Shown piece by piece: positions 4,436 to 48,273 of a stretch of 64,000 bases of DNA (position 1 is the stretch's first letter; every line of letters starts with the position of its first letter). Source of the DNA: an uncultured Candidatus Saccharimonadales bacterium (lineage in GTDB: Bacteria; Patescibacteriota; Saccharimonadia; UBA4664); contig CAZSRA010000004.1 in assembly GCA_964609585.1 (NCBI GenBank), positions 27,417 through 91,416 of the forward strand. Reading direction: 5' to 3'. The translations under genes were made by a program, and so were the position numbers. Under the pieces are notes generated by a model that did no database searches, was not told the origin of the DNA, and saw nothing but the letters and a program-made list of their open reading frames with translations.

Positions 4436-5370
4436 CGATATTTTTTTACGGACCAAATACCTTTGAACTTCGCCGTCAGCTGCAAGAAATGATGACAACG
4501 TATGTAAAAAAGGCGGGGTCGGATTTTGGTTTGGAGAGAGTTGATGGGGGTAGTGTGCGTTCCCATGAGCTTCGGGCTGCGTTGCAGGCAGTACCGTTTT
4601 TGGCAAATTCGAGGCTCGTGATCGTGGAGGGGCTGGCGCTGAATAAGGGAGTTTCGGATAAGCTTGAAGCGATTATGGCTGAGGTACCGGTATCCACAGT
4701 GGTAGTGTTCGTGGACCGGGAAGTAGACCAGCGTACGAGTGTTTTTAAACAACTGGCTAAGGCGGATAAGGTGGTGAAATTTGAGCCACTGTCGGGGCCA
4801 AAGCTTTTAAGCTGGGTGAAGGCAGAGATTGAGAAATTGGGTGGCGCAGCAGCGCCGCTTACCGTGCGGGAACTGGTAGAGGTGGCTGGTGAGGATCAGT
4901 GGCGGCTTTCGGGCGAGATTAATAAGCTGGTGAATTTTAACCCTGAAGTGACCATAGAAGTGGTGCGAGAAATGGTAACACCGAGCGTAGAGCAATCGAT
5001 TTTTGAGCTTGTTGAGGCTATGACAGCTGGACGGGCGGATGTGGCTCTGGCAGGATATCATCGTTTGCTTGTTCGTAGGGAGAGTGAGATTTATATTTTG
5101 ACCATGGTGCAGTGGCAATTGCGAAATTTGCTTTTGGCGAAAGCAGCGCCCGGGAATATGAGTCCGCCGGAGCTTGCAAAAGCGGCTGGGATGAGTCCAT
5201 ATGTGGCCGGGAAGATGGCGACTGCTCAGGGTCGATTGCACGAGGAGGTTCTAACAGAAGCTTATGCAGCGGCGGCGGACTGCGAGTACGACATCAAGAC
5301 CGGTAGACTTAAAGCGGAAGTGGCGGTGGAGCAATTGATTTATCGTGTAGGGATGATGGCGAAGGTTTAA
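4432..5370 (+). CDS. holA: DNA polymerase III delta subunit
   Basis: ATGA overlap with fpg stop; ~312-aa protein consistent with the HolA delta-subunit family. Confidence 0.75.
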   Translation: MTIFFYGPNTFELRRQLQEMMTTYVKKAGSDFGLERVDGGSVRSHELRAALQAVPFLANSRLVIVEGLALNKGVSDKLEAIMAEVPVSTVVVFVDREVDQRTSVFKQLAKADKVVKFEPLSGPKLLSWVKAEIEKLGGAAAPLTVRELVEVAGEDQWRLSGEINKLVNFNPEVTIEVVREMVTPSVEQSIFELVEAMTAGRADVALAGYHRLLVRRESEIYILTMVQWQLRNLLLAKAAPGNMSPPELAKAAGMSPYVAGKMATAQGRLHEEVLTEAYAAAADCEYDIKTGRLKAEVAVEQLIYRVGMMAKV

Positions 5371-5579
5371 TAGCCGGCTTCGTAGTCGGCTTGTTTGATG
5401 TCTTCAAGTAGTGTCTCCATATCGCTAAGGAGTGTGGTGAGTTCTTGGAGCTCGCCTTTGGCTAGCCATGCATTGCCGGGCGTGGTGGCAAAGTCTCGCA
5501 GGTTGGCGGTGCGCGTGACGATGTCTTCGGCTAGTTCGAGAAGATGGGCGCGCAAAGGGTCGGATGGAGTTTTTGCCAT
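5367..5579 (-). CDS. small acidic hypothetical protein (70 aa)
   Basis: intergenic ORF downstream of EEP gene on same strand; no SD; speculative. Confidence 0.25.
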   Translation of the reverse strand: MAKTPSDPLRAHLLELAEDIVTRTANLRDFATTPGNAWLAKGELQELTTLLSDMETLLEDIKQADYEAGY

Positions 5580-5611
5580 GGGCTTAGTATATCAGTTCGG
5601 GTGGTTTGTGA

Positions 5612-6379
5612 TCAGCAATCGATTCTGGCAATAACGGCTTTGTGGTCGGAAACGAGCTGGTCATTTACTTCAATATGGCGAACCTTGAGATTGGGACTGG
5701 CAAAGAGGTAGTCGCAAATAATGCCCTGAACGTAGTGTGCGCTCGACAGTGTAGTGGTGGCTCCGGTGGCTGAGACGAGGTTGTACAAATCGGTGGTTTG
5801 CTGGAAAGCCTGAATGGCAGGACTGCCTGGCGAAAGGTTGAAGTCGCCACCAACGATGACGGGGCCTTCCAGGGCTTTGATATAGCTTGCAACTTCTTGG
5901 AGGCGTTCGGCTGAGGCTTCGTTGCCGCGAGGTTGATTAACCCAATGTCCATGGTGGTTGATGAGATTTAAGGTAGTGCCGTGGCTTGTAATGCTGACAT
6001 GCTGGAAGTTGCGAGTGAGGTTGCTATCGAAGCTTTCAAGTGAGGCTGGATTATCAAGATGGAGCGGTCCAGGGCCACCGGTATAGTGAGTGGAGGTGTG
6101 ATTAAATCGGTGTTTTGAGAAAATAGCGTTTCCATAACTAAGCTGGTGGCCGAACACATTGAAACTACAGCAGGGAGAGAAAAACACATGGTTGAAGTGG
6201 TTTTGAGTGCTGATGAGCTCTAGAGTGCGGAATTGTTTCCAGGGTGAATAGGGGCTGATATGCTCCGGATAGGTAAAGACCTCCTGGGTGAAGATAACAT
6301 CAGGGTTTTCTTGGTCGATGAGTTTTAGCAGGGAGTTTAGCAGGTGGCCTTGCCAAACGTTTACTTGCATTATTTTCAT
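5612..6379 (-). CDS. endonuclease/exonuclease/phosphatase (EEP) family protein
   Basis: 255-aa ORF with EEP-fold motifs (N-terminal MQVNVW..., C-terminal SDHKAV). Confidence 0.75.
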   Translation of the reverse strand: MKIMQVNVWQGHLLNSLLKLIDQENPDVIFTQEVFTYPEHISPYSPWKQFRTLELISTQNHFNHVFFSPCCSFNVFGHQLSYGNAIFSKHRFNHTSTHYTGGPGPLHLDNPASLESFDSNLTRNFQHVSITSHGTTLNLINHHGHWVNQPRGNEASAERLQEVASYIKALEGPVIVGGDFNLSPGSPAIQAFQQTTDLYNLVSATGATTTLSSAHYVQGIICDYLFASPNLKVRHIEVNDQLVSDHKAVIARIDC

Positions 6380-7587: not shown

Positions 7588-8850
7588 ATGGATTTAACTC
7601 CCAAACAGCAGACTTCTGAAGCGATTCGGCAAGCAGAATCGATCTTGATTCTGACGGGCCAACACCCTTCGGTTGACCAGGCGTCGGCCGTGGCAGCACT
7701 GGCGGCGATTTTGCGCAAGTTTGGTAAAAAGGTGAGTGCAGTGGTGAGCGATAACCCGCCAGCGGCGGTGCAATCGCTCGATCCGCATGCATTTGAGCGT
7801 GGGCTAGGTGGTTCGCGCGATTTTGTGCTGAAGGTGGATACCACGAAGGTCGAGGTTGATAAGCTCCGGTACGAGGCGGAAGGTGGCAAGCTCAATATCT
7901 ATTTGACGCCTTTTAAAGGTGGATTTGCTCCAAGTGATGTGACGTTTGGGTACGGCGCTTTTCATTATGATTTGGCGATCGTGCTTGGCGTGCCGACACG
8001 GGCGAGGATTGATCGGATTTATGAGCAGAACTTGGCTTCATTTGAGACGATTCCGATGGTGAATTTGGACTTTCACCGGTCGAATGAGAATTATGGCGCG
8101 GTGAATTTGATTGAGCCGAGTGCGTCGAGTTTGTGCGAGATGCTAGTAGCTTTGAGCGAGAGCTTGCAGAGCGGGATTATTGACGCGGAAATTGCGACGG
8201 CACTTTTGATGGGGATTGTGGCTTCGACAGACCGGTTTACCGCGACGCACACAAGCCCGAAGAGCCTAACGGTAGCGGCGCAGATGATGGCGGCAGGAGC
8301 TAGGCAACAAACCGTGGTACGGGCATTGTACCGCGAGGGTAAGGGAGAGTCGCGAGGGGAGCGTGGTGGCGACCGTGAACGTGGCGGGGAGCGTTCAGGC
8401 GACCGTGAACGTAGCGGTCAGGGTCAGCGTAATGCGGCGGCTCAGTCGCCTGTGGTACCGGCTCCGACGTCTGCTGCGGTCCGCGAACCGGCTGCTCAGC
8501 CTACCCCTGTGGTCCAGCCGACTCCTGCGGCTCCTGCTCCTGTTTCTGTGCCTGAACCGCCAGTAGTTGCGCCTGCGCCAGCTGCTGCGCCTGAGATGTC
8601 GACGCCTGCGACCTCGGTAGAGACTGCTCAGCCTGTGGCTCAAGAGCAAACGCGGCTCATGCAAGACGACGGTGCCATTATTCAGCCAGCTCATATAGAA
8701 ATGAGCGTACCAGAAGCAGTCCAGCCAGCTCAGATGGCGGCACCTCAGCCGCAGCTTGCCCCGGAGCGGCCCCAGGCTATGCCGGTAGCGGATTTTGCTG
8801 CGGCAGCCGAGATGTTTAATCGAGAACCGGTTGCAGACGACGCAAAATAG
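7588..8850 (+). CDS. DHH/DHHA1 family phosphoesterase (NrnA-like nanoRNase/pAp phosphatase) with long low-complexity RG/Pro-rich C-terminal tail
   Basis: DHH/DHHA1 motifs in first ~260 aa; C-terminal ~150 aa disordered (ERGGDRERGG repeats, PAAPAP). Confidence 0.75.
   Translation: MDLTPKQQTSEAIRQAESILILTGQHPSVDQASAVAALAAILRKFGKKVSAVVSDNPPAAVQSLDPHAFERGLGGSRDFVLKVDTTKVEVDKLRYEAEGGKLNIYLTPFKGGFAPSDVTFGYGAFHYDLAIVLGVPTRARIDRIYEQNLASFETIPMVNLDFHRSNENYGAVNLIEPSASSLCEMLVALSESLQSGIIDAEIATALLMGIVASTDRFTATHTSPKSLTVAAQMMAAGARQQTVVRALYREGKGESRGERGGDRERGGERSGDRERSGQGQRNAAAQSPVVPAPTSAAVREPAAQPTPVVQPTPAAPAPVSVPEPPVVAPAPAAAPEMSTPATSVETAQPVAQEQTRLMQDDGAIIQPAHIEMSVPEAVQPAQMAAPQPQLAPERPQAMPVADFAAAAEMFNREPVADDAK
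8365..8424 (+). repeat. 2 x 30-bp imperfect tandem repeat inside DHH gene encoding ERGGDRERGG/ERSGDRERSG
   Basis: gagcgtggtggcgaccgtgaacgtggcggg / gagcgttcaggcgaccgtgaacgtagcggt read directly. Confidence 0.8.
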
Positions 8851-8872: not shown

Positions 8873-9538
8873 ATGAACGGTCTTTTGTTGGTGAATAAGC
8901 CGGTGGGTATGAGCTCATTTGACGTGATTCGGCGGCTGCGGCGGCAAACGGGGGTGCGTAAGATTGGGCATGCAGGCACCTTGGACCCACTCGCGAGTGG
9001 ACTCATGTTGATGTTGTTTGGGACGGCGTGCAAAAAAGCAGAGCTACTAACTAAATTTGATAAACGCTATGAAGCGAAGATTCGCCTGGGTGCTAATAGT
9101 ACAACCGGGGATGCGGAGGGGGAGAAACTGCTGGTGAGTGAGCGGGTACCGACACTGGGCGAGGTTGAAGCGGCGCTTGCTCGGCTCACGGGTGAGGTTA
9201 CGCAGGTGCCGAGTATGTATTCGGCCATTAAGATTAACGGCAAGGAAGCATATAAGCGAGCGCGAGCAGGTGAGGCTGTTGAGATGCCGAGTCGGGTAGT
9301 GACGGTGTATGAGAATGTGATGCAGAACTATGAATATCCGGTTATCAGGCTAAATTCGAAGGTATCGAGCGGGACGTATATTCGGAGTTTGGCTCAGGAT
9401 CTGGGCGAACTTTTGGGGACGGGGGCGTATTTGGACGGTTTGGTGCGGACGGAGGTGGGGGATTATCGACTGGAGAATGCGATGGAGTTGGACGGCGCGG
9501 ATGGTGAAAATGTGGAAAAAGCCTTGCTCGATGTGTGA
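8873..9538 (+). CDS. truB: tRNA pseudouridine(55) synthase (short form, no PUA domain)
   Basis: LLVNKPVGMSSFDVIRR...GHAGTLDPLASGLMLMLFG catalytic Asp motif. Confidence 0.9.
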   Translation: MNGLLLVNKPVGMSSFDVIRRLRRQTGVRKIGHAGTLDPLASGLMLMLFGTACKKAELLTKFDKRYEAKIRLGANSTTGDAEGEKLLVSERVPTLGEVEAALARLTGEVTQVPSMYSAIKINGKEAYKRARAGEAVEMPSRVVTVYENVMQNYEYPVIRLNSKVSSGTYIRSLAQDLGELLGTGAYLDGLVRTEVGDYRLENAMELDGADGENVEKALLDV

Positions 9539-9870
9539 TTTGGAGTATCCTCATTTGTGGTGCCCACAATACGTCTCTTGACTTTTATAAATTAATATAG
9601 TAAAATATATAACGATCGATTCACGATTGGGCTTGCCTTAGGCGAGAACAGCCGTGAGACGACCGCGCCCGCACGGAGCTCCAGTCCCCGCCAACCCGTG
9701 TGGCCGCCTTGTACCTGTCTTTTATGCATAACGTGAGTTCTTGGACTGAGGCCGCTCTGGTTGACTTCAGTGAACTTACTTGTACGTTAGTTCAAAGGTC
9801 GGCGAGAATCCTCTCGTTTGATCAAGCCCCTATCTTGAGCTAGTGCCACTAGTTTCGGGAAGGACGCACC

Positions 9871-10095
9871 ATGACCACTACGGCTACCCGGCCCGGTTCG
9901 GCCTCGGCTTACGTCTGTGAGCACCCGACGCCCTGTCCGGAGGCCCACGCCCCCGACCGCGACGCCGCCTTCATCCGGGCGGCCCACCCGGAGCAGGGCT
10001 GGTCGTTGCTGTGCAACGGCATCGTCCTGTTCGAGGACACCGGCGAGCTCCTGCCCGACGGCAGGTCGATCGCCCCCCACCGGCCCACTGACTGA
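9871..10095 (+). CDS. DUF5999-like small protein (actinobacterial-type), 74 aa
   Basis: motif HPEQGWSLLCNGIVLFEDTGELLPDGRSIAPHRP recalled from Streptomyces-type DUF5999; ~68% GC with C-ending codons on + strand; SD GGAAGGA upstream. Confidence 0.6.
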   Translation: MTTTATRPGSASAYVCEHPTPCPEAHAPDRDAAFIRAAHPEQGWSLLCNGIVLFEDTGELLPDGRSIAPHRPTD

Positions 10096-10145
10096 TAGCC
10101 TACGGGCTGCCGGTGACGCTCGGGGAGGCGTACTCCCCACCTACG

Positions 10146-10184
10146 ACCCATCGACTACGCGCTTCGTGCGCGTGGTCGATGGGT
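10146..10184 (+). terminator. stem-loop after DUF5999-like gene (17-bp near-perfect stem, loop TTCG)
   Basis: acccatcgactacgcgc ttcg tgcgcgtggtcgatgggt. Confidence 0.5.
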
Positions 10185-10292
10185 TACCACCCCGAGTTAT
10201 CGATTGCAATACATCGATGTCTCAGGCTGGTTTTGTTCGATTGACCAGTGGCTATTGCCAGATACGTATAGAAGTGCTAATATACCCGAGTT

Positions 10293-10559
10293 ATGTTAAA
10301 ACCTGAATCTAAAACCAAGGTTATTTCAAGTCTTGCCACACACAAGACCGATACTGGCTCGCCTGAAGTGCAGGTCGGTATCTTTACTGAGCAGATTAAA
10401 GAGCTCACGAAGCATCTTCAAGTTCACAAAAAAGATGAGCACTCTCGTCGTGGCCTTTTGAAGATGGTGAGCAAGCGTCGCCGATTGCTTGATTACTTGA
10501 ACAAGCGTGACCCTTCTCGCTACCAGGACATTTTGAAGAAACTGGACCTGCGTCGGTAA
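10293..10559 (+). CDS. rpsO: 30S ribosomal protein S15
   Basis: 88-aa ORF with S15 signature. Confidence 0.95.
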
Positions 10560-10582
10560 TTTCTATTCGTTGCTTTTGAAAT

Positions 10583-10606
10583 AAAGGCGGCTTTAGCCGC
10601 CTTTAT
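10583..10606 (+). terminator. rho-independent terminator-like hairpin after rpsO
   Basis: aaaggcggc ttta gccgccttt perfect 9-bp stem. Confidence 0.6.
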
Positions 10607-10782
10607 GGATTTAGAACTACTGCTTTGGACTGGGCGTAATCTGTGGTATAATTGCCGTACAACACATCCAGGTTTTACCAACCTAGACGGTGCGCATGTG
10701 ATTTATATGTGTTAGAGCTTTGGGATTAATGGATCACTCGGTCCTCTGTTAATCTCTTGTCCCTGGTACGTATGCGCCGTCG

Positions 10783-12909
10783 ATGAAGGACTTTATGAAA
10801 CAAGAAATCATTCACCCTTTCGGGGGCAAGACTCAGACGTTTAAAACTGAGTTTTGTGGTCGTGAACTTACTATTGAAACCGGTAAGATGGGCTTTTTGG
10901 CCGATGGCGCCGTAACGGTGCGTTATGGTGACACGGTAGTGCTGGGTACGGCGGTGGTGAGTAATCAGCCGCGGGATGGGGTGGACTTTTTCCCACTTTT
11001 AATTGACTTCGAGGAGCGATTTTACGCTTCGGGGAAGATTTCGGGGAGTCGCTTCATTAAGCGCGAAGGTCGGGCGAGTGAGCATGCGACTTTGAGCGCG
11101 CGGTTGATTGACCGGCCGATTCGGCCGTTGTTTCCGAAGGGCTATCGCAATGACGTGCAGAGTGTGGCGATGGTGATTTCGGCTGATCTTGAGCTAGCAT
11201 CGAACATTATTGCCATGACGGCGGTGTCGACGGCTTTGATGCTTTCTGGTGCGCCGTTTGAGGGGCCGGTGGCTGGGGTACGCGTGGGGCTGATTGACGG
11301 TGAGCTGGTGGCATTTCCGACTGAGGAGCAACTGCAGAATTCCAAGCTCGATCTGACGGTCGCGGGCACGAAAGACGCCATTATGATGGTGGAAGCGGGC
11401 GCGATGGAAGTGGACGAGGAGACGATGATCAAGGCAATTGAGCTCGCACACAAGAGCATTCAGCCGTTGATTAAATTGCAGGAAGAGATCGTAGCGAAGC
11501 TGGGCGTGAAAGAGAAGCCATTTGAGCTGGTGACAGCCGATGAGGAGTTGGTAGCTGCGATTAAGCACTTTTTGACGGGTAAACTAGGGCCAGCAGTGCG
11601 ACACCAAGATCACTACGTGCGCCACGATGCGATTCGCAACCTGGAGAGCGAAGTGGTGGAGCAGTTTGGTGAGAATTATGAGCATGCAAAGATTGAGGTG
11701 GCGTTTCGTAAGACGATAGATTATGAGATTCGCCGGGCGATCGTGGAAGACGGTGAGCGGCCGGATGGTCGCAAAACGACCGAGGTGCGGCCGATTTCCT
11801 CGCAGGTGGGGCTGCTGCCGCGCACGCACGGGAGTGCTTTGTTTACGCGCGGTTCGACCCAGGTGTTGAACGTGACGACGCTGGCTTCGACGACGTTTGC
11901 ACAGTTGATCGACACGATGGAAGAGAACACGACGAAACGCTACATGCACCATTACAATGCGCCGGGTTACTCAGGTGGCGAGGTGAAGCCAATGCGTTCG
12001 CCGGGCCGTCGCGAGATTGGGCACGGGGCTTTGGCCGAGCGAGCGCTTTTGCCAGTGATTCCGTCGGTGGAAGATTTCCCGTACACGATTCGCACGGTGT
12101 CTGAAGTGCTGAGCCAGAATGGTTCGAGCTCGATGGCGAGCGTGTGTGGTTCGACGCTGTCGCTGATGGACGCGGGAGTACCAATCCGAAAGCCCGTGGC
12201 CGGTATTGCGATGGGGCTCATCACCAAGGGTGACGGCGACTACGTGATTTTGAGCGACATCCAAGGTGCTGAGGACTTTGCTGGCGACATGGACTTTAAG
12301 GTCGCAGGTACTAAAGACGGCATTACGGCCTTGCAGATGGACATTAAGGTGAAGGGGATTACGCCGGCGATTATGCGCGACGCCCTGGCGCAGGCTCACA
12401 CGGGTCGGGCGCACATTATGAGCAAGATGATGGAAGTGTTGGACGAGCCGCGAGCTGAAATGAGCCCGTTTGCCCCACGGATTTCGAAGCTGATGATTAA
12501 CCCGGACAAGATCAAGGACGTGATCGGTAAGGGCGGCGAGACGATTAACCGGATTATTGCAGAAACTGGCGTGGAGATCGACATTGAAGATTCGGGTCTG
12601 GTGATGATTGCTTCGGTGGATGCTGAGGGTGCTGAGCGGGCGATTGAGATCATTAAGGGTCTTACCGAGGATCCTGAGGTGGGTACGATTTATACGGGCA
12701 CCGTGGTGAAACTGATGGACTTTGGGGCCTTCGTGAACGTTATGCCGGGCAAAGACGGCTTGGTGCACGTGAGCCAAATGAGCGATCAGCGGGTGGAAAA
12801 GGTAAGTGATGTGGTAAAATTGGGCGACAAGGTGCGCGTGAAGCTGATGGAAATTGATGCGCAGGGACGACTTAATTTGAGCATGAAGGCAGCAGCCGAA
12901 AAAAAGTAA
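10783..12909 (+). CDS. pnp: polynucleotide phosphorylase (PNPase)
   Basis: 708 aa; two RNase PH domains, KH and S1 at C-terminus; long structured 5' UTR. Confidence 0.95.
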   Translation: MKDFMKQEIIHPFGGKTQTFKTEFCGRELTIETGKMGFLADGAVTVRYGDTVVLGTAVVSNQPRDGVDFFPLLIDFEERFYASGKISGSRFIKREGRASEHATLSARLIDRPIRPLFPKGYRNDVQSVAMVISADLELASNIIAMTAVSTALMLSGAPFEGPVAGVRVGLIDGELVAFPTEEQLQNSKLDLTVAGTKDAIMMVEAGAMEVDEETMIKAIELAHKSIQPLIKLQEEIVAKLGVKEKPFELVTADEELVAAIKHFLTGKLGPAVRHQDHYVRHDAIRNLESEVVEQFGENYEHAKIEVAFRKTIDYEIRRAIVEDGERPDGRKTTEVRPISSQVGLLPRTHGSALFTRGSTQVLNVTTLASTTFAQLIDTMEENTTKRYMHHYNAPGYSGGEVKPMRSPGRREIGHGALAERALLPVIPSVEDFPYTIRTVSEVLSQNGSSSMASVCGSTLSLMDAGVPIRKPVAGIAMGLITKGDGDYVILSDIQGAEDFAGDMDFKVAGTKDGITALQMDIKVKGITPAIMRDALAQAHTGRAHIMSKMMEVLDEPRAEMSPFAPRISKLMINPDKIKDVIGKGGETINRIIAETGVEIDIEDSGLVMIASVDAEGAERAIEIIKGLTEDPEVGTIYTGTVVKLMDFGAFVNVMPGKDGLVHVSQMSDQRVEKVSDVVKLGDKVRVKLMEIDAQGRLNLSMKAAAEKK

Positions 12910-40552: not shown

Positions 40553-41167
40553 TCAGGCGATGGCGGCGTTCGTGTACTGGCAGAAGGATCTGACGGGTCG
40601 CTGACCGTTGAGCCAGTTGAACGCATCTTGGAGCGCGCCGGGGAGCGTCGTGATGACGAGTGGAGGTACGCCTCCGCTTGCCTGGTGGAAGATCGCTGGT
40701 GTGCACACGAAGCTCGTTTGCGAGGAGTTCGGTGTGACCCCGATCATCACCAGGCCGGGGTAGTCGGGATCGGCGGTGATGACGAGAACGAGGCAGTCAT
40801 TGCGCCAGCGCTCCAGCTTGATGCTGGGACTGGCCTGCGGACTGCTGCTGCCGGGATCCTGGTAATGGAACCCGGCGTTCGATAGTGCTTGCTGGTTGTC
40901 CCAGTTCAGGATCGTGGCGCCGACGACGGCGGGCGAGGTCGATGCGGGCCTGCAGGCGGCTTTGATCTTGATGTCGCTTGCCGAGATGCTCGCGGTCGCA
41001 TCGGTTGATGTGCTTGAGCTGGGCTTGTCGCCTGCGGTGGGCGTGGTCGTAACGACCGAGGTCGAGTGCGCCGGGTGGTTGTGGGCGCTGTAAGCGGCGA
41101 CGCTGGCACCCGTGAGAGCGACAGCTGCGAGGATCACAGCGGCCAGATTGCTACGCCGAGTTCGCAT
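40553..41167 (-). CDS. secreted protein (204 aa; Sec signal, S/T-rich linker, 4-Cys C-terminal domain), paralog of 41371 ORF, ~65% GC
   Basis: ATG at 41165-41167 with SD GAAGG; signal MRTRRSNLAAVILAAVALTGASVAA. Confidence 0.5.
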   Translation of the reverse strand: MRTRRSNLAAVILAAVALTGASVAAYSAHNHPAHSTSVVTTTPTAGDKPSSSTSTDATASISASDIKIKAACRPASTSPAVVGATILNWDNQQALSNAGFHYQDPGSSSPQASPSIKLERWRNDCLVLVITADPDYPGLVMIGVTPNSSQTSFVCTPAIFHQASGGVPPLVITTLPGALQDAFNWLNGQRPVRSFCQYTNAAIA

Positions 41168-41215
41168 ACGCGAGCCTTCTTTCTTCGTCTGGGTTGTCAA
41201 AAATGGACGATTAAT

Positions 41216-41244
41216 ATTTTAGAATAAACCATTTGATTTGTCAA
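41216..41244 (-). promoter_or_regulatory. near-consensus sigma70 promoter TTGACA-N17-TAAAAT (minus strand) for cassette gene a
   Basis: reverse complement of attttagaataaaccatttgatttgtcaa. Confidence 0.55.
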
Positions 41245-41266
41245 TTTTATGATAATTAAAAACAAG

Positions 41267-41370
41267 CCTAAGATTTCAAAAAAGGAGCTTGGGTGCTCTT
41301 GAAGCCTTAGGCTTGCGCCGGTCCCCGCGCGCCGAAGGCGCGGGGACCGGCATGCAAGACGGGAAGGGAA
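41267..41370 (-). repeat. cassette 3' repeat copy 2 with perfect 14-bp GC hairpin (gccggtccccgcgc...gcgcggggaccggc)
   Basis: hairpin and flanking CCTAAG...CTTAGG arms read directly from sequence. Confidence 0.7.
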
Positions 41371-42012
41371 CTAGCTCCTGGTGCAGTCGGACCCGCCGTT
41401 GGCGAGCCAGACGTCCAGCTTGGTGAGCGCGACGTCGACGTTTGCGGCGTCCAGCGGCAGGCTCACGTTGCACATGAACCCCTCCGGCCTCTTGGTGCGC
41501 GTGGAGTCTTCGTACATGCCGATCAGGAGGATCGTCGGGTTCGCGCCGGTGGTGACCAGCATCGAGGTGCAGCCCTGCGTCTCCTTCCAGTCCTCCCAGC
41601 CATCGGTGTCCGAGCTGACGTTGTGGAAGCCGAAGCCGGCGCTCGTGAGCGGCTGAGCGGGGATCTGGCCGAGCTTCGTACCGGAGGGCGGGCTGAACTG
41701 CGTTGCGGTGGGGCAGCCGGTGACCTGGTCGATCGTGGCCTCGAGGCCCTGGGCGGTCGGGTCCAGCGTGATCGCCGACGGCGACGTGGTCGGCACGGCG
41801 GTCGAGTGGGCGGGGGACGGGGAGGCCGCGGCGTTGGCCGACTGGGACGCGGAGGCGTTGGTGGTCGGCGCCGGAGCGACGACGTTCTGGCCGCCAGCGA
41901 AGCGCGGGTTGACGTTGGGCTTCGCGCCCCTGGATCCGCTGCAGGCAGCGGTGCTGAGGGCGGTGGCCAGGAACAGGCCGATGAGGCTGGAGGCGCGCTT
42001 CGAGATTCGCAT
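41371..42012 (-). CDS. putative lipoprotein (213 aa; lipobox-like LSTAAC, S/T/P/A-rich linker, Cys-containing C-terminal domain), paralog of 40553 ORF, ~66% GC
   Basis: shared motifs with paralog (GF.(Y/F)...; LV.T(A/G).P..L(L/V)IG; F(V/M)C; WL(N/A)G); SD GAAGGGAAC. Confidence 0.5.
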   Translation of the reverse strand: MRISKRASSLIGLFLATALSTAACSGSRGAKPNVNPRFAGGQNVVAPAPTTNASASQSANAAASPSPAHSTAVPTTSPSAITLDPTAQGLEATIDQVTGCPTATQFSPPSGTKLGQIPAQPLTSAGFGFHNVSSDTDGWEDWKETQGCTSMLVTTGANPTILLIGMYEDSTRTKRPEGFMCNVSLPLDAANVDVALTKLDVWLANGGSDCTRS

Positions 42013-42104
42013 GGTGTGCGAGTTCCCTTCTTAAAGTGTCTTGCGGGGTCAAGGTAGCGATCGCTCGAGTAAATCTAGGGACTACAATGAGCAGATCGTT
42101 AACT

Positions 42105-42133
42105 ACTTTAGCATAAGTAGTATCATTTGTCAA
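42105..42133 (-). promoter_or_regulatory. near-consensus sigma70 promoter TTGACA-N17-TAAAGT (minus strand) for cassette gene b
   Basis: reverse complement of actttagcataagtagtatcatttgtcaa. Confidence 0.55.
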
Positions 42134-45137: not shown

Positions 45138-45236
45138 GGGCGGTTCGGGGATTGCTCCCCGAACCGCCCGGTTGGTGTGACTCGGGCCTAGGGTCCGAGT
45201 CACAGGACGGGGGTCCGGCTGAGGGTTACCAGCCGG
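45138..45236. terminator. three consecutive hairpins between convergent pilC and PD40-SGNH gene (14-bp, 9-bp, 7-bp stems)
   Basis: gggcggttcgggga ttgc tccccgaaccgccc; gtgactcgg...ccgagtcac; ccggctg...cagccgg. Confidence 0.55.
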
Positions 45237-47583
45237 TACCGGTGAGGACGGAGATCGCGGTTGCCGCGATCTTGGACTGACCGGTGGTGCTGCCGCTGCC
45301 CGGGGTGGGGTGCGGGTAGCCGTAGATCCGGTTGGTGGAGATGTAGCCACCTGCGACCGGGCTCGTGCCCAGGGCGGAGGTGGCGGTGAGGTCAACGTAC
45401 TTGACGTTGGTTCCGCTCACGTAGGTGTGGTCGCCGTTGAGCTCGACTACCACGCTGTGGATGCCCTTGGTGCTGCCGGAGTCGGCGTAGCAGGAGTTGC
45501 CAGTGCTATCGACGACATTCGGGTAGCCGACGTTCAGAATCCTGACACCCGGCGAGGCAGCGGCTGCCACCGTCTCCATGCCTTGCAGGTTGCTCTGGAT
45601 GAGCCCGGAAACGGTGAAGCCGGTGCCGGGGTCGGGAACCGTGAGGTTGTCGTAGACGGAGTTGGCGTCCGGGCAGTTGGTGATGCCGCTGGTGACGGCC
45701 CAGGGTTTGACGCTGGGCGTGTTCCAGTTCGCGAGGTACCAGTTGGCCAGGACGTCAGTCCAGTTGGTGTCGTCGGCGCCGCCGGTCATGCTGACGACGT
45801 TCCAGGAGTCGTACCGCGTGTATAACGCGAGACTGAGCTTTGCGGATTGGGTGTCTCCGCTGGCCCAGGCTGCGGTTCCCGGGGTCGCCAGGTCGCTGCC
45901 GAAACTACTGGTTGGGGCTCCGCTGCGAGCGATCAGGTAGGCCGGCATCCCATCGGAGCCGGTTGCTCCCATACTGATTTGCCAGACTGAAGGGGCGTGC
46001 GTGGAGCTGTTGTAGCTGGCCACGGCCGTGTTCACCCAGGATGCGGTCGCGTCGTTGGGCGTGGGGTCGTTGCTGGGGAGGTACGAAGCACCATCGGCGC
46101 AACTGATGGTCTTGCCGAGGTACTTCACTGCGGCGTCCGCTTGAGTGGGACACTGTGGCTGATCCGATGCCTCGTGGTGGCCGCTGCTGAACGAGTCGCC
46201 GACGGCAGCCCAGATGGGGGCCTTCGGTGTGTGTACCCTGAGAGGTGTGCTCCAGCTACCGGCGGTTCCGCCGGTGCTCACTGGGCGCACCCACAGGTAC
46301 CAGTCTTGGTCGGGCTGCGTGCCGCCGCCCCAGGTGGTGCCGGTACCCGAGTACTTGCCAAGGAAGCTGATCGGTCCCTTCTTCGTGCTCATGTTGGTGA
46401 TGGTTTGGAGGTAGCTCGTGTTCGGAGCGGTCGTGCTCGACGTCGACCATCCGAGGTCGAACCGCTGGTTGCCGGTGGCCGAGAGACTTACCGTCACCTG
46501 GCGGGTGTACGGTGCGTCGCTGGCCGACGGGGCACTGAACGTCGCGGTGCTATTGGACGGCGGGGCTGGGGGCCAGGCCGCGTTGACGAGGGAGAACCAC
46601 GACTGGACATGGCCGCTGGAGGCGGTCAGGTCGGTGGCAGTGCCACCGCTCGAGCTGATGCTGAACACGTCTTCGGAGCCGCTCGTCGTGTTGTTGCTGG
46701 CGAAATACACCGTGCTGCCGTTGGCCGACACGCGCGGCAGTTCGTCAGTGCGCGAGTAGGACTCCGTCGTCAGGGCGTTGCGGGTCACGGTTGTCGTGCT
46801 GAATCCGTTTGACGAACCAAAGTACGAAAGGCCGCCTCCGTTCTCATCACTGTTGAAGTAGATCCGCGATCCATCCGGCGACCAGGCAGGCTCGACATCG
46901 TTGTATGAGCCAAGCGCCGAAGTGAGGCGATGCTGGTTGGTGCCGTCTGCGTTCATGATCCAGATCTGTGTCTGGTTCGTGCCGCTCGGGTCGACGAGGT
47001 CGTAGGTGAGCTTGGTGCCGTCCGGTGACCACGCGACGTCGAGATCGCTCACGTTGTTGGTCGTGAGCTGAACCACACCGCCGGTGCCGTCCGACCTGAC
47101 CTTGTAGACGTTGGTGTTGATCCCGCCCGGCACGGAGTAGCGCCGGGTGAACGCGATCCAGGAACCGTCCGGCGACCAGTGCGGGTTGTCCTCGGTGAAG
47201 TTGTCCGTCGAACCGGCCTGGGTGAGGGTTGTGATACCCGATCCGTCCGAGTTGGCGAGGTAGATCCCCGAGTAGCTGGTTGGGTAGCCAACGTAGGCGA
47301 CCCGCGACCCGTCTGGGGAGACGTCCGGCTGGCTCGGCGATTGTGTGCTCTCGATGATCGTCGAGACCGTACCGGTGGAGCCATCGCGCTTGGCGATGAT
47401 GCCGTTTCCACCGGAATCCATACCGTCGTACATGATGTCGCCAGCGGCGACATCGGCGTGAGCCATCGGCGCCGTGGCGACGATGTTGAAGACCGGGAGT
47501 CCGATGACGGTTCCGATCGCTAGCGCGAAGGCGAGCAAGATTGCTCGCAGTCCGCTGCTAGGTGGTGTCGGTCGTTGAGACAC
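45226..47583 (-). CDS. secreted PD40 (TolB-like) beta-propeller + SGNH/GDSL hydrolase fusion protein (785 aa), ~65% GC
   Basis: GTG start with SD AAAGGAGT; signal peptide; four SPDGS(R/W/K)(V/I/L)x(Y/F) PD40 repeats; GDSL block IWAAVGDSFSSG. Confidence 0.6.
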   Translation of the reverse strand: MSQRPTPPSSGLRAILLAFALAIGTVIGLPVFNIVATAPMAHADVAAGDIMYDGMDSGGNGIIAKRDGSTGTVSTIIESTQSPSQPDVSPDGSRVAYVGYPTSYSGIYLANSDGSGITTLTQAGSTDNFTEDNPHWSPDGSWIAFTRRYSVPGGINTNVYKVRSDGTGGVVQLTTNNVSDLDVAWSPDGTKLTYDLVDPSGTNQTQIWIMNADGTNQHRLTSALGSYNDVEPAWSPDGSRIYFNSDENGGGLSYFGSSNGFSTTTVTRNALTTESYSRTDELPRVSANGSTVYFASNNTTSGSEDVFSISSSGGTATDLTASSGHVQSWFSLVNAAWPPAPPSNSTATFSAPSASDAPYTRQVTVSLSATGNQRFDLGWSTSSTTAPNTSYLQTITNMSTKKGPISFLGKYSGTGTTWGGGTQPDQDWYLWVRPVSTGGTAGSWSTPLRVHTPKAPIWAAVGDSFSSGHHEASDQPQCPTQADAAVKYLGKTISCADGASYLPSNDPTPNDATASWVNTAVASYNSSTHAPSVWQISMGATGSDGMPAYLIARSGAPTSSFGSDLATPGTAAWASGDTQSAKLSLALYTRYDSWNVVSMTGGADDTNWTDVLANWYLANWNTPSVKPWAVTSGITNCPDANSVYDNLTVPDPGTGFTVSGLIQSNLQGMETVAAAASPGVRILNVGYPNVVDSTGNSCYADSGSTKGIHSVVVELNGDHTYVSGTNVKYVDLTATSALGTSPVAGGYISTNRIYGYPHPTPGSGSTTGQSKIAATAISVLTGTGW

Positions 47584-47790: not shown

Positions 47791-48273
47791 GTGAGAAACC
47801 TCCTTAAGAAAGAAAAGGGTTTTACCCTTATAGAAATCGTGCTTGTCTTGGCCATTGCGGGTCTTTTGCTCGTGATTGTGTTCTTGGCGGTGTCTGGGGC
47901 TCAGAAGAGTCGGCGAGATACGCAGCGGAAGAACGACTTGAGCCGAGTAGCAGCTCAGCTGGAAAGTTTTGCTTCGAATAATAATGGATGCTACCCAGGA
48001 TCGGGTGGTCTAGGGGGTTGTCCTGCAGGTATATCAACATTTGCTGTTTTTGCAGCTAGTACCTACATCACAGGAGCAAATTTGACTGATCCGCTGCAAG
48101 GTGGTGCATATACTTATGCTGGACTAGTAACTCCAACTTCTGCTGTTGCTGCTGGCTTCCAGTATCAAATTGGAGCTGGTACTACTTGCGATGGAGTCGC
48201 AAATGCTAGTGCTCGAGTATATAGCTTGCGACTAGGTCTTGAGCAGGGCACTGGCTGCCGGGACAACAAGTAA
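47791..48273 (+). CDS. pilA: type IV pilin (major pilin candidate), class III signal KG|FTLIE
   Basis: GTG start with SD; GFTLIEIVLVLAIAGLLLVIV; two Cys pairs. Confidence 0.8.
   Translation: MRNLLKKEKGFTLIEIVLVLAIAGLLLVIVFLAVSGAQKSRRDTQRKNDLSRVAAQLESFASNNNGCYPGSGGLGGCPAGISTFAVFAASTYITGANLTDPLQGGAYTYAGLVTPTSAVAAGFQYQIGAGTTCDGVANASARVYSLRLGLEQGTGCRDNK

Follow-up and report, generated by a model that had tools for sequence, protein, structure and literature searches.

Intervals between conserved core genes that act as hotspots of horizontal gene transfer (HGT) are a general concept of bacterial genomics, and the cultured Saccharimonadales are ultra-small cells that live on Actinobacteria. Here we examine a 64,000-nt stretch of DNA from an uncultured Candidatus Saccharimonadales bacterium (hereafter the window), in which a small gene of the family DUF5999 lies between the core genes truB and rpsO. 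The general kind, horizontal acquisition of a gene at a transfer hotspot, is already known; what is new is the instance, DUF5999 outside Actinomycetota, and to our knowledge the window gene would be the first reported there. We consider it probable that a recent actinobacterial coding sequence (CDS) occupies an older, variable slot.

DUF5999, a family of highly conserved small proteins, is described as restricted to, or found predominantly in, Actinomycetota. Its members SCO1375 (Streptomyces coelicolor) and Vnz_04640 (S. venezuelae) are direct targets of OrrA, an orphan response regulator that activates them along with WblA, and their function is not established (bioRxiv 10.64898/2026.01.30.702861). 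Two reports describe Saccharibacteria as naturally competent epibionts of Actinobacteria (PMC10187176, PMC10633639).

The DUF5999 gene and its protein

The slot is framed by two core genes on the + strand: truB at left (tRNA pseudouridine-55 synthase; 8873-9538; Pfam TruB_N, E=4.3e-45) and rpsO at right (ribosomal protein S15; 10293-10559; Pfam Ribosomal_S15, E=3.2e-33), with pnp downstream of rpsO (10783-12909). A second assembly, from Logan, has a 221-aa gene called at the truB position. The gap measures 754 bp in the window, as the ~0.7 kb first read from the sequence had indicated. It holds an open reading frame (ORF) at 9871-10095 on the + strand, 74 codons and a stop, which we assign to a Catenulispora-type recent actinobacterial import. 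A Shine-Dalgarno sequence read from the DNA (GGGAAGGA, 9857-9864, + strand) stands 6 nt upstream of its ATG, as had been noted before.

The encoded protein is a complete member of its family. It matches Pfam PF19462 (DUF5999) from position 1 to 57 of the 57-position model (E=2.7e-32; 111 bits against a cut-off of 27.5), which confirms the family assignment of the sequence-only reading. At the family-invariant columns of a 70-sequence alignment the window residue agrees in 18 of 18 cases, with C16, H18, C22, P23, D29, QGW, LLCNG, F54, D56, G58 and P62 all kept, and the family signature (C-x-H-x3-CP, D, QGW-LLCNG, F-D-G, P) is present throughout. At 74 aa the protein falls in the small stand-alone class (~60-90 aa; the listed homologues are mostly 64-120 aa).

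Because C16, H18, C22 and C48 are invariant across the 70 homologues, the C-x-H-x3-C...C motif is probably a Cys3-His metal site. The AlphaFold model (mean pLDDT 79.6; 86-92 across residues 21-70) has a four-stranded beta unit with the C-x-H-x3-C loop ahead of it, and the protein is accordingly modelled as small and beta-rich. Among solved structures none resembles this model, a sequence profile search of the PDB gave chance matches only, and searches of NCBIfam and PHROGs gave no informative match.

With SCO1375 and Vnz_04640 the window protein shares a full-length HMM match, the length class and the invariant residues, and it is 80% identical to chromosomal Catenulispora-type members. Its setting is different. 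The window copy sits in a Saccharimonadales genome and in a truB-rpsO context, whereas actinobacterial DUF5999 genes sit in actinobacterial syntenies; and its predicted promoter is AT-rich and of sigma-70 type, and would not be OrrA-dependent like those of SCO1375 and Vnz_04640. The recipient genome, of a soil type, is Saccharimonadales-like: its polynucleotide phosphorylase (PNPase) shares 83% identity with the enzyme of an uncultured Candidatus Saccharimonadales metagenome-assembled genome (MAG; locus L012), 63-64% with those of two Saccharibacteria MAGs (L014, L015) and <60% with all else.

Origin and age of the coding sequence

The family search returned 5,584 matches. Those that are named are all actinobacterial, mainly from Catenulispora and Streptomyces and also from Micromonospora, and the earlier description of DUF5999 as typical of Actinobacteria was sound. 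The exact window protein occurs only in the 96-kb deposited contig and in a 3.3-kb Logan contig of run SRR9179560. The next-best proteins share 80-81% aa identity with it, and their genes 82-84.5% nt identity that is confined strictly to the CDS; a comparison of the flanks with the actinobacterial loci found no nucleotide similarity beyond it. These nearest genes sit on contigs of 66-69% GC in the order Rce1-like, GCS2, SBP_bac_11, DUF5999, APH. Because Catenulispora sp. GAS73 has exactly the same order, we take them to be chromosomal orthologues of Catenulispora-like actinobacteria.

The composition of the CDS sets it apart from its surroundings. ORF 9871-10095 is 72% GC (the ~68% given earlier was too low), with 0.89 G+C at third codon positions (GC3) made up of more C (C3, 0.55) than G (G3, 0.35). 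All long + strand ORFs of the window have G3 of 0.22-0.61 and C3 of 0.07-0.28, so the sequence-only reading was right that the gene favours C-ending codons against a + strand G bias. Among 300-nt segments of >=63% GC, the DUF5999 segment alone is clearly negative in GC skew (-0.12 to -0.14, compared with -0.05 for a segment at 8401). High GC is limited to 9860-10180 and a 40-nt patch at 9660-9700, with ~50% GC at 9700-9860 and 17% at 9580-9620, and a continuous high-GC islet from 9580 to 10290, as first proposed, does not exist.

Synonymous divergence (dS) between the window CDS and the nearest actinobacterial genes is 0.43-0.57, with a ratio of nonsynonymous to synonymous change (omega) of 0.19-0.28 that averages over both lineages (0.43 and 0.28, respectively, for L008). 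For the window against L092, its closest sampled relative, dS comes to 1.17 in pnp (omega 0.04), 1.41 in rpsO (omega 0.02) and 1.69 in truB (omega 0.13). The CDS still keeps its foreign GC3, and synonymous sites between window and L092 are saturated; the import would therefore postdate the split of these two lineages.

The CDS also appears to be changing in its new home. Relative to the consensus of five Catenulispora-type genes, window-specific changes run from GC to AT 12 times and from AT to GC 5 times. Six of the third-position changes are C to T and four are C to G, and third-position T is 0.09 against 0.00-0.01 in the actinobacterial genes. Amelioration toward the G- and T-rich + strand of the host has begun, as expected of a real resident and not of a chimera.

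That assembly or binning spliced actinobacterial reads into a Saccharimonadales contig is extremely improbable, even if the composition contrast across ~300 bp is strong and the exact protein comes from one sample only. The join has assembly support, since it is identical in the deposited contig and in the Logan assembly of SRR9179560 (100% over 9400-10400), an assembly that may share reads with the deposited MAG and is not fully independent of it. Moreover, a single short contig has host-lineage sequence to the left and right of the gene, other metagenomes contain analogous arrangements (L092, L093 and L130; L095), the window-specific substitutions drift toward host composition, and the flanks are matched by no actinobacterial contig that we fetched. 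An exact look-up of the window S15 found the Logan contig only.

The marks of a transfer of actinobacterial origin are all found at this gene: atypical composition, nearest neighbours in the donor group and patchy presence in relatives. Our comparisons indicate that a Catenulispora-like actinobacterium was, in all likelihood, the fairly recent source of the DUF5999 CDS. The earlier claim of recent acquisition from an actinobacterium stands for the CDS, on GC3, nearest neighbours and a dS of 0.43; it falls for a one-off islet of 0.7 kb, whose flanks are conserved.

DUF5999 also travels on plasmids. A plasmid collection held the family on 151 actinobacterial plasmids (146 of them from Streptomyces), in copies 60-71% identical. 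On the Streptomyces linear plasmid SAP1 (L131, 4510-5228) DUF5999 lies immediately downstream of a whiB-family gene, and on another, pFRL2 (L132, 5004-8233), it lies ~1 kb upstream of traB. These contexts connect DUF5999 with Wbl regulators and with regions of conjugative transfer. A tblastn search of a phage database found no DUF5999, and a phage vector is therefore unsupported.

The slot in related genomes

The gap itself is older than its present content. In more distant Saccharibacteria (L014, L015, L047, L107) truB and rpsO are spaced ~36-80 nt apart. In the window's own clade, the 5-6 closest relatives hold 0.5-1.2 kb between the two genes, with contents that differ, which is at odds with the single insertion into a tight truB-rpsO junction that had been envisaged from the window by itself. 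By rpsO identity the clade comprises two halves, one with the window and L092 and the other with L094, L095 and L012, and DUF5999-type cargo occurs in both.

The cargo in L095 (rpsO 85% identical to that of the window) is a bona fide DUF5999 gene (Pfam E=1e-29) with host-like composition (GC3 0.62; G3 0.42 > C3 0.21). Its nearest relatives, 68-78% identical, are of Micromonospora and Stackebrandtia type, and the closest of them lies in a Micromonospora synteny of Chorismate_bind and DUF5999.

L092 (rpsO 97% and pnp 93% identical to the window) carries an orphan ORF of ~200 aa (5044-5646) in a patch of 65-67% GC. The N-terminal ~80 residues of the encoded protein are a divergent DUF5999 (Pfam E=2.4e-4, below threshold) with the motif KCEH...CP...AVLCNGV, and its C-terminal extension has no homologues but itself among 5.8 billion proteins. 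The ORF is 64% GC with C3 above G3, and it had no match in the plasmid collection. The loci L092, L093 and L130, from three metagenomes, are 99.6-99.7% identical to each other.

Other relatives hold other genes. L094 (rpsO 85%) has a 93-aa ORF (1849-2130) of no Pfam family, 46% identical to an unannotated small ORF of Nonomuraea gerenzanensis with which it shares the motif VAQE.GDHPE....RMRWA; it is thus, beside DUF5999, another sort of actinobacterial-type small gene to have entered the slot. L012 (rpsO 84%) and L097 have small hydrophobic, probably membrane, ORFs there.

On these comparisons the truB-rpsO gap would be a long-lived, clade-wide cargo slot with turnover, repeatedly filled by actinobacterial small genes, and DUF5999 would have been captured in it from at least two donor orders. 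The pattern suggests that Saccharimonadales repeatedly sample one particular actinobacterial protein.

Could one ancient DUF5999 cassette, acquired in the truB-rpsO gap of the clade ancestor and passed on by vertical descent, have given rise to the versions in the window, L092 and L095, each diverging at its own rate? The same locus is occupied in both rpsO subclades, a non-coding leader is common to the window and L095, a promoter and a hairpin are common to the window and L092, and the ORFs of the window and L092 both begin MTTT and carry CEH...CP...LCNG. The sequences of the proteins and genes tell a different story, and we regard this history as improbable. The window CDS has GC3 of 0.89 and reversed skew in spite of saturated dS (1.2-1.7) against L092, and its dS to Catenulispora-type genes is just 0.43. 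Over the 57-residue domain the window protein is 57% identical to that of L095 and 39% to that of L092. L095 ranks 257/261 in similarity to the window protein: ~94% of 259 actinobacterial-type proteins are closer to the window than L095 is, and in similarity to L095 ~85% of them outrank the window protein. In a bootstrap nearest-neighbour test (1000 resamples) the window and L095 proteins were never mutual nearest neighbours, and the nearest relatives of the two lie in two different order-specific syntenies. Because of the bootstrap, the two donor syntenies and the opposite states of amelioration, our comparison of sequences agrees better with two or more separate captures than with a single ancient one.

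The slot resembles known HGT hotspots in being a fixed core-gene interval with differing accessory genes among relatives and no integrase in the interval. It differs in its very small size (0.5-1.2 kb, holding no more than one or two small genes), in having its own conserved promoter and insulating hairpin, and in being refilled with one actinobacterial family from different donor orders.

The left border gene has its own peculiarity. truB is only 67-75% identical among the window, L092, L094, L095 and L012, and between the window and L092 S15 is 97% and PNPase 93% identical. It would follow that truB changes far more rapidly than the genes beside it (omega 0.13), or that it was exchanged.

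Flanking elements and the extent of foreign DNA

The predicted regulatory elements around the gene belong to the host lineage. A sigma-70-type promoter-like sequence, TTGACT-17-TAAAAT, lies at 9578-9606 (+ strand; 10/12 positions matched). It aligns with TTGACT-17-TATTAT of L092 (4791-4819), with both hexamers kept (TTGACTTTT and the -10 box) and different cargo behind them, and in both genomes it stands ~250 nt upstream of the GC-rich ORF. A promoter-like site is thus present, as the sequence-only reading had it; being 17% GC and homologous to that of L092, it was not acquired with the gene.

Downstream of the promoter lies a leader element (9656-9722, + strand), consisting of GAGACGACCGC, then an inverted repeat (CCGCACGG-N19-CCGTGTGG) and a T-run. 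Fifty-five nt of it (9656-9710), including the 3' arm of the repeat, CCGTG(T/C)GGCCGCC, are common to the window and L095 (1322-1400), where they directly follow the truB stop. By chance 0.02 copies would be expected in the window, and no other locus that we fetched has the element, 17 actinobacterial DUF5999 loci included. It may be a truB terminator or attenuator.

At the right, the CDS is followed by a 3' untranslated stretch of ~72% GC (10096-10145, + strand) with no homology to L092 or to the actinobacterial loci; these ~50 nt were probably imported along with the CDS. Nucleotide homology to L092 restarts exactly at 10146 and then continues unbroken through rpsO and pnp at 80% identity. 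It begins with a 17-bp hairpin without a U-tract (10146-10184, + strand; arms 10146-10162 and 10168-10184; 94% complementary), and the fold of this 3' region is far stronger than that of shuffled sequences (z = -5.3 to -5.5). The hairpin has a homologue in L092 (5707-5745). Its stem survives through compensatory AT-to-CC and AT-to-GG changes, with CCCATCGAC/GTCGATGGG in paired substitution against CCCCCCGAC/GTCGGGGGG. A long hairpin (13-20 bp) stands between the cargo and the rpsO promoter in 5/5 relatives examined, differing in sequence in some, and the window hairpin is probably a terminator or insulator ahead of that promoter. The hairpin that had been counted as part of the islet is therefore real and belongs to the conserved right flank.

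Two further conserved elements lead up to rpsO. A second, weaker hairpin with ATCGAT palindromes (10186-10231, + strand) is conserved with L092, and the native rpsO promoter, TTGCCA-17-(TG)CTAATAT (10255-10283, + strand), is conserved in L012, L013, L092 and L095. Because promoter, leader, hairpin and rpsO promoter are common to relatives, the foreign DNA would extend at most over ~9720-10145, or ~0.3-0.45 kb.

These flanks also bear on the proposal that a 0.7-kb actinobacterial fragment, with its own promoter and terminator and bounded by ATCGATT motifs, was inserted once into a tight junction. The gap of ~36-80 nt in distant Saccharibacteria and the strongly foreign composition of the coding region speak for it. 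Nearly everything else speaks against it and makes it very unlikely: the promoter is AT-rich (17% GC) and homologous to that of L092, the hairpin and all rightward sequence are homologous to L092, the leader is common to L095 and is not in the actinobacterial loci, the 5-6 closest relatives also have 0.5-1.2 kb at the site, and ATCGATT is not enriched and has counterparts around other cargo. The motif occurs at 9615 and 10199, with 9 + 5 copies in the window, about the chance level, and both sites have degenerate counterparts in L092. ATCGATT motifs do not bound an islet, and we rejected them as an insertion scar.

Nor did we find the signature of a mobile element. Of the features of an integrative mobile element or genomic island (recombinase, att site or target-site duplication, tRNA target), none is found at truB-rpsO. 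The genes within ~8 kb either side include no integrase, transposase or recombinase, a tRNA scan placed the nearest tRNA 48 kb from the gene, and no target-site duplication was seen, only short repeats of chance-level significance. One of these is an exact 10-nt direct repeat (CCCGAGTTAT, 10191-10200 and 10285-10294) that brackets the rpsO promoter, its first copy standing close behind the hairpin and its second overlapping the rpsO start codon; by our own estimate ~0.3 are expected by chance, and both copies are degenerate in L092. No further copies of the flanking elements or islet segments were found in the window, and a repeated cassette or MITE (miniature inverted-repeat transposable element) system is unsupported. 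An Rfam scan of 9400-10800 (E up to 10) gave no match in 9540-10290 better than E=7.8, all far under the gathering scores.

The likeness to integron cassettes is superficial. A resident promoter precedes a short exchangeable ORF, which is followed by a long, imperfect hairpin; there is, by contrast, no integrase within ~8 kb either side, a single cassette and no other copy of the flanks in the window, and the hairpin, common to L092, belongs to the conserved flank and not to the cargo. The defining features of integron cassettes are absent from the slot, with attC core motifs judged by eye only.

A model of entry and its possible meaning

How might such a slot be refilled? We picture a host-type promoter and leader at the left of the slot and a strong hairpin at the right that insulates rpsO. 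Actinobacterial DNA would be taken up by natural transformation and joined by illegitimate or homology-facilitated recombination, and after the split from L092 the earlier cargo would have been replaced by the Catenulispora-like CDS and ~50 nt. The host-lineage promoter at 9578-9606 would drive transcription of the gene, its good Shine-Dalgarno sequence would serve translation, and the transcript would end at the hairpin at 10146-10184; in the epibiont the gene would be kept under purifying selection. A Saccharimonadales-like recipient, actinobacterial donors and the lack of a mobile-element signature are what host-to-epibiont transfer in Saccharibacteria would look like, and they fit transformation. 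The present case differs in that the gene for a tiny protein of the OrrA developmental regulon of Streptomyces moved, not a metabolic or cell-surface gene.

Besides the reads that the two assemblies may share, several points weigh against this reading. The nearest actinobacterial genes are only ~84% nt identical, which leaves the donor unsampled and makes 'recent' a relative term, and a domain of 57 residues gives weak phylogenetic resolution. At the left the import has no defined border, and the stretch 9720-9860 (~50% GC) is without any match. The locus shows no recombination mechanism. The promoter, terminator and leader functions are predictions, and the leader folds no better than shuffled sequences (z = -0.8). 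About seven related loci were examined, which under-samples the history of gain, loss and replacement. Over-expression of Vnz_04640 in S. venezuelae gave no visible phenotype (bioRxiv 10.64898/2026.01.30.702861). Finally, a role of DUF5999 in mimicking or sensing the host is speculative and rather improbable, and secretion or action on the host is unsupported.

The import may be real and the gene nevertheless idle, a transient by-product of DNA uptake that is bound to decay in the epibiont. The differing cargo among relatives, which suggests high turnover, would suit a neutral passenger of this sort, as would over-expression without a phenotype in Streptomyces and the lack of an identified WhiB or OrrA partner in the annotated part of the window (~0.3-20 kb and five ORFs at 40.5-48.3 kb). 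We nonetheless think it unlikely. The ORF is intact with 18/18 invariant residues, omega is 0.19-0.28 (an average over both lineages), and the gene has a good Shine-Dalgarno sequence behind a conserved host promoter. Moreover, three lineages carry DUF5999, drawn from two or more donor orders, and in L095 the copy has remained intact for as long as it took to acquire host composition.

If the captured gene is retained for its function, what might that function be? With low confidence, DUF5999 could serve as a copy of a developmental or regulatory factor of the host, interfering with or sensing the state of the actinobacterium, perhaps by interaction with a conserved actinobacterial partner. A bolder form of this idea, which we rate as distinctly improbable, has soil Saccharimonadales maintain a dedicated expression slot, made up of resident promoter, leader and insulating hairpin, that captures small regulators of the current actinobacterial host, DUF5999 being favoured, as mimics within the OrrA/WblA circuit that manipulate or read the host, so that the allele reports which host it is.

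Recurrence in three epibiont lineages, at one locus and from at least two donor orders, argues for selection and not accident. Its repeated capture singles out DUF5999 as a candidate interface of epibiont and host, and offers a new route to the function of the family. The hosts of soil Saccharibacteria are almost all unidentified, and the slot allele could be a cheap genomic clue to them if it tracks the donor order, as seems to be the case (Catenulispora type in the window, Micromonospora type in L095). Even as a mere passenger, the gene would be a clean case of small-scale cargo turnover in an HGT hotspot of a reduced genome.

Other features of the window

The genes flanking the slot for ~8 kb on each side are all core genes: polA, holA, S20, an nrnA-like DHH phosphoesterase, truB, S15, pnp, UDG, RNase J and ftsK. 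On the strand opposite to the DUF5999 gene, and overlapping it, is an ORF of 117 aa (9787-10140) with no Pfam family match. Directly after rpsO, the 223 nt that separate it from pnp include a GC-rich hairpin bordered by A/T runs (AAATAAAGGCGGCTTTAGCCGCCTTTAT, 10575-10602), and the Rfam matches in this spacer were all weak and sub-threshold. The placement of the hairpin resembles the rpsO terminator and pnp leader arrangement of other bacteria. The DHH-family protein ends in a long low-complexity tail (window 8300-8850), in which ERGGDRERGGERSGDRERSG repeats are followed by a Pro/Ala-rich stretch. The DNA that encodes the tail forms a local GC peak of 66%, and L012 also has the tail, in a different form.

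Third codon positions are strongly strand-asymmetric across the window (1-64000). Genes on the + strand have G3 of ~0.4-0.6 and C3 of ~0.1-0.2, and those on the - strand the reverse. The window in its entirety thus appears to belong to a single replichore whose GC skew is unusually high. Other GC-rich genes (63-66%) follow this host skew, at 45226-47583 (- strand), 40553-42133 (- strand) and 47791-48273 (+ strand). One of them encodes a protein of 785 aa that has a hydrophobic segment at its N terminus and beta-propeller repeats of the PD40 type; the other two are ORFs without a Pfam match, one of which is probably not a real gene. The three adjoin a type IV pilin-like gene (N_methyl motif).

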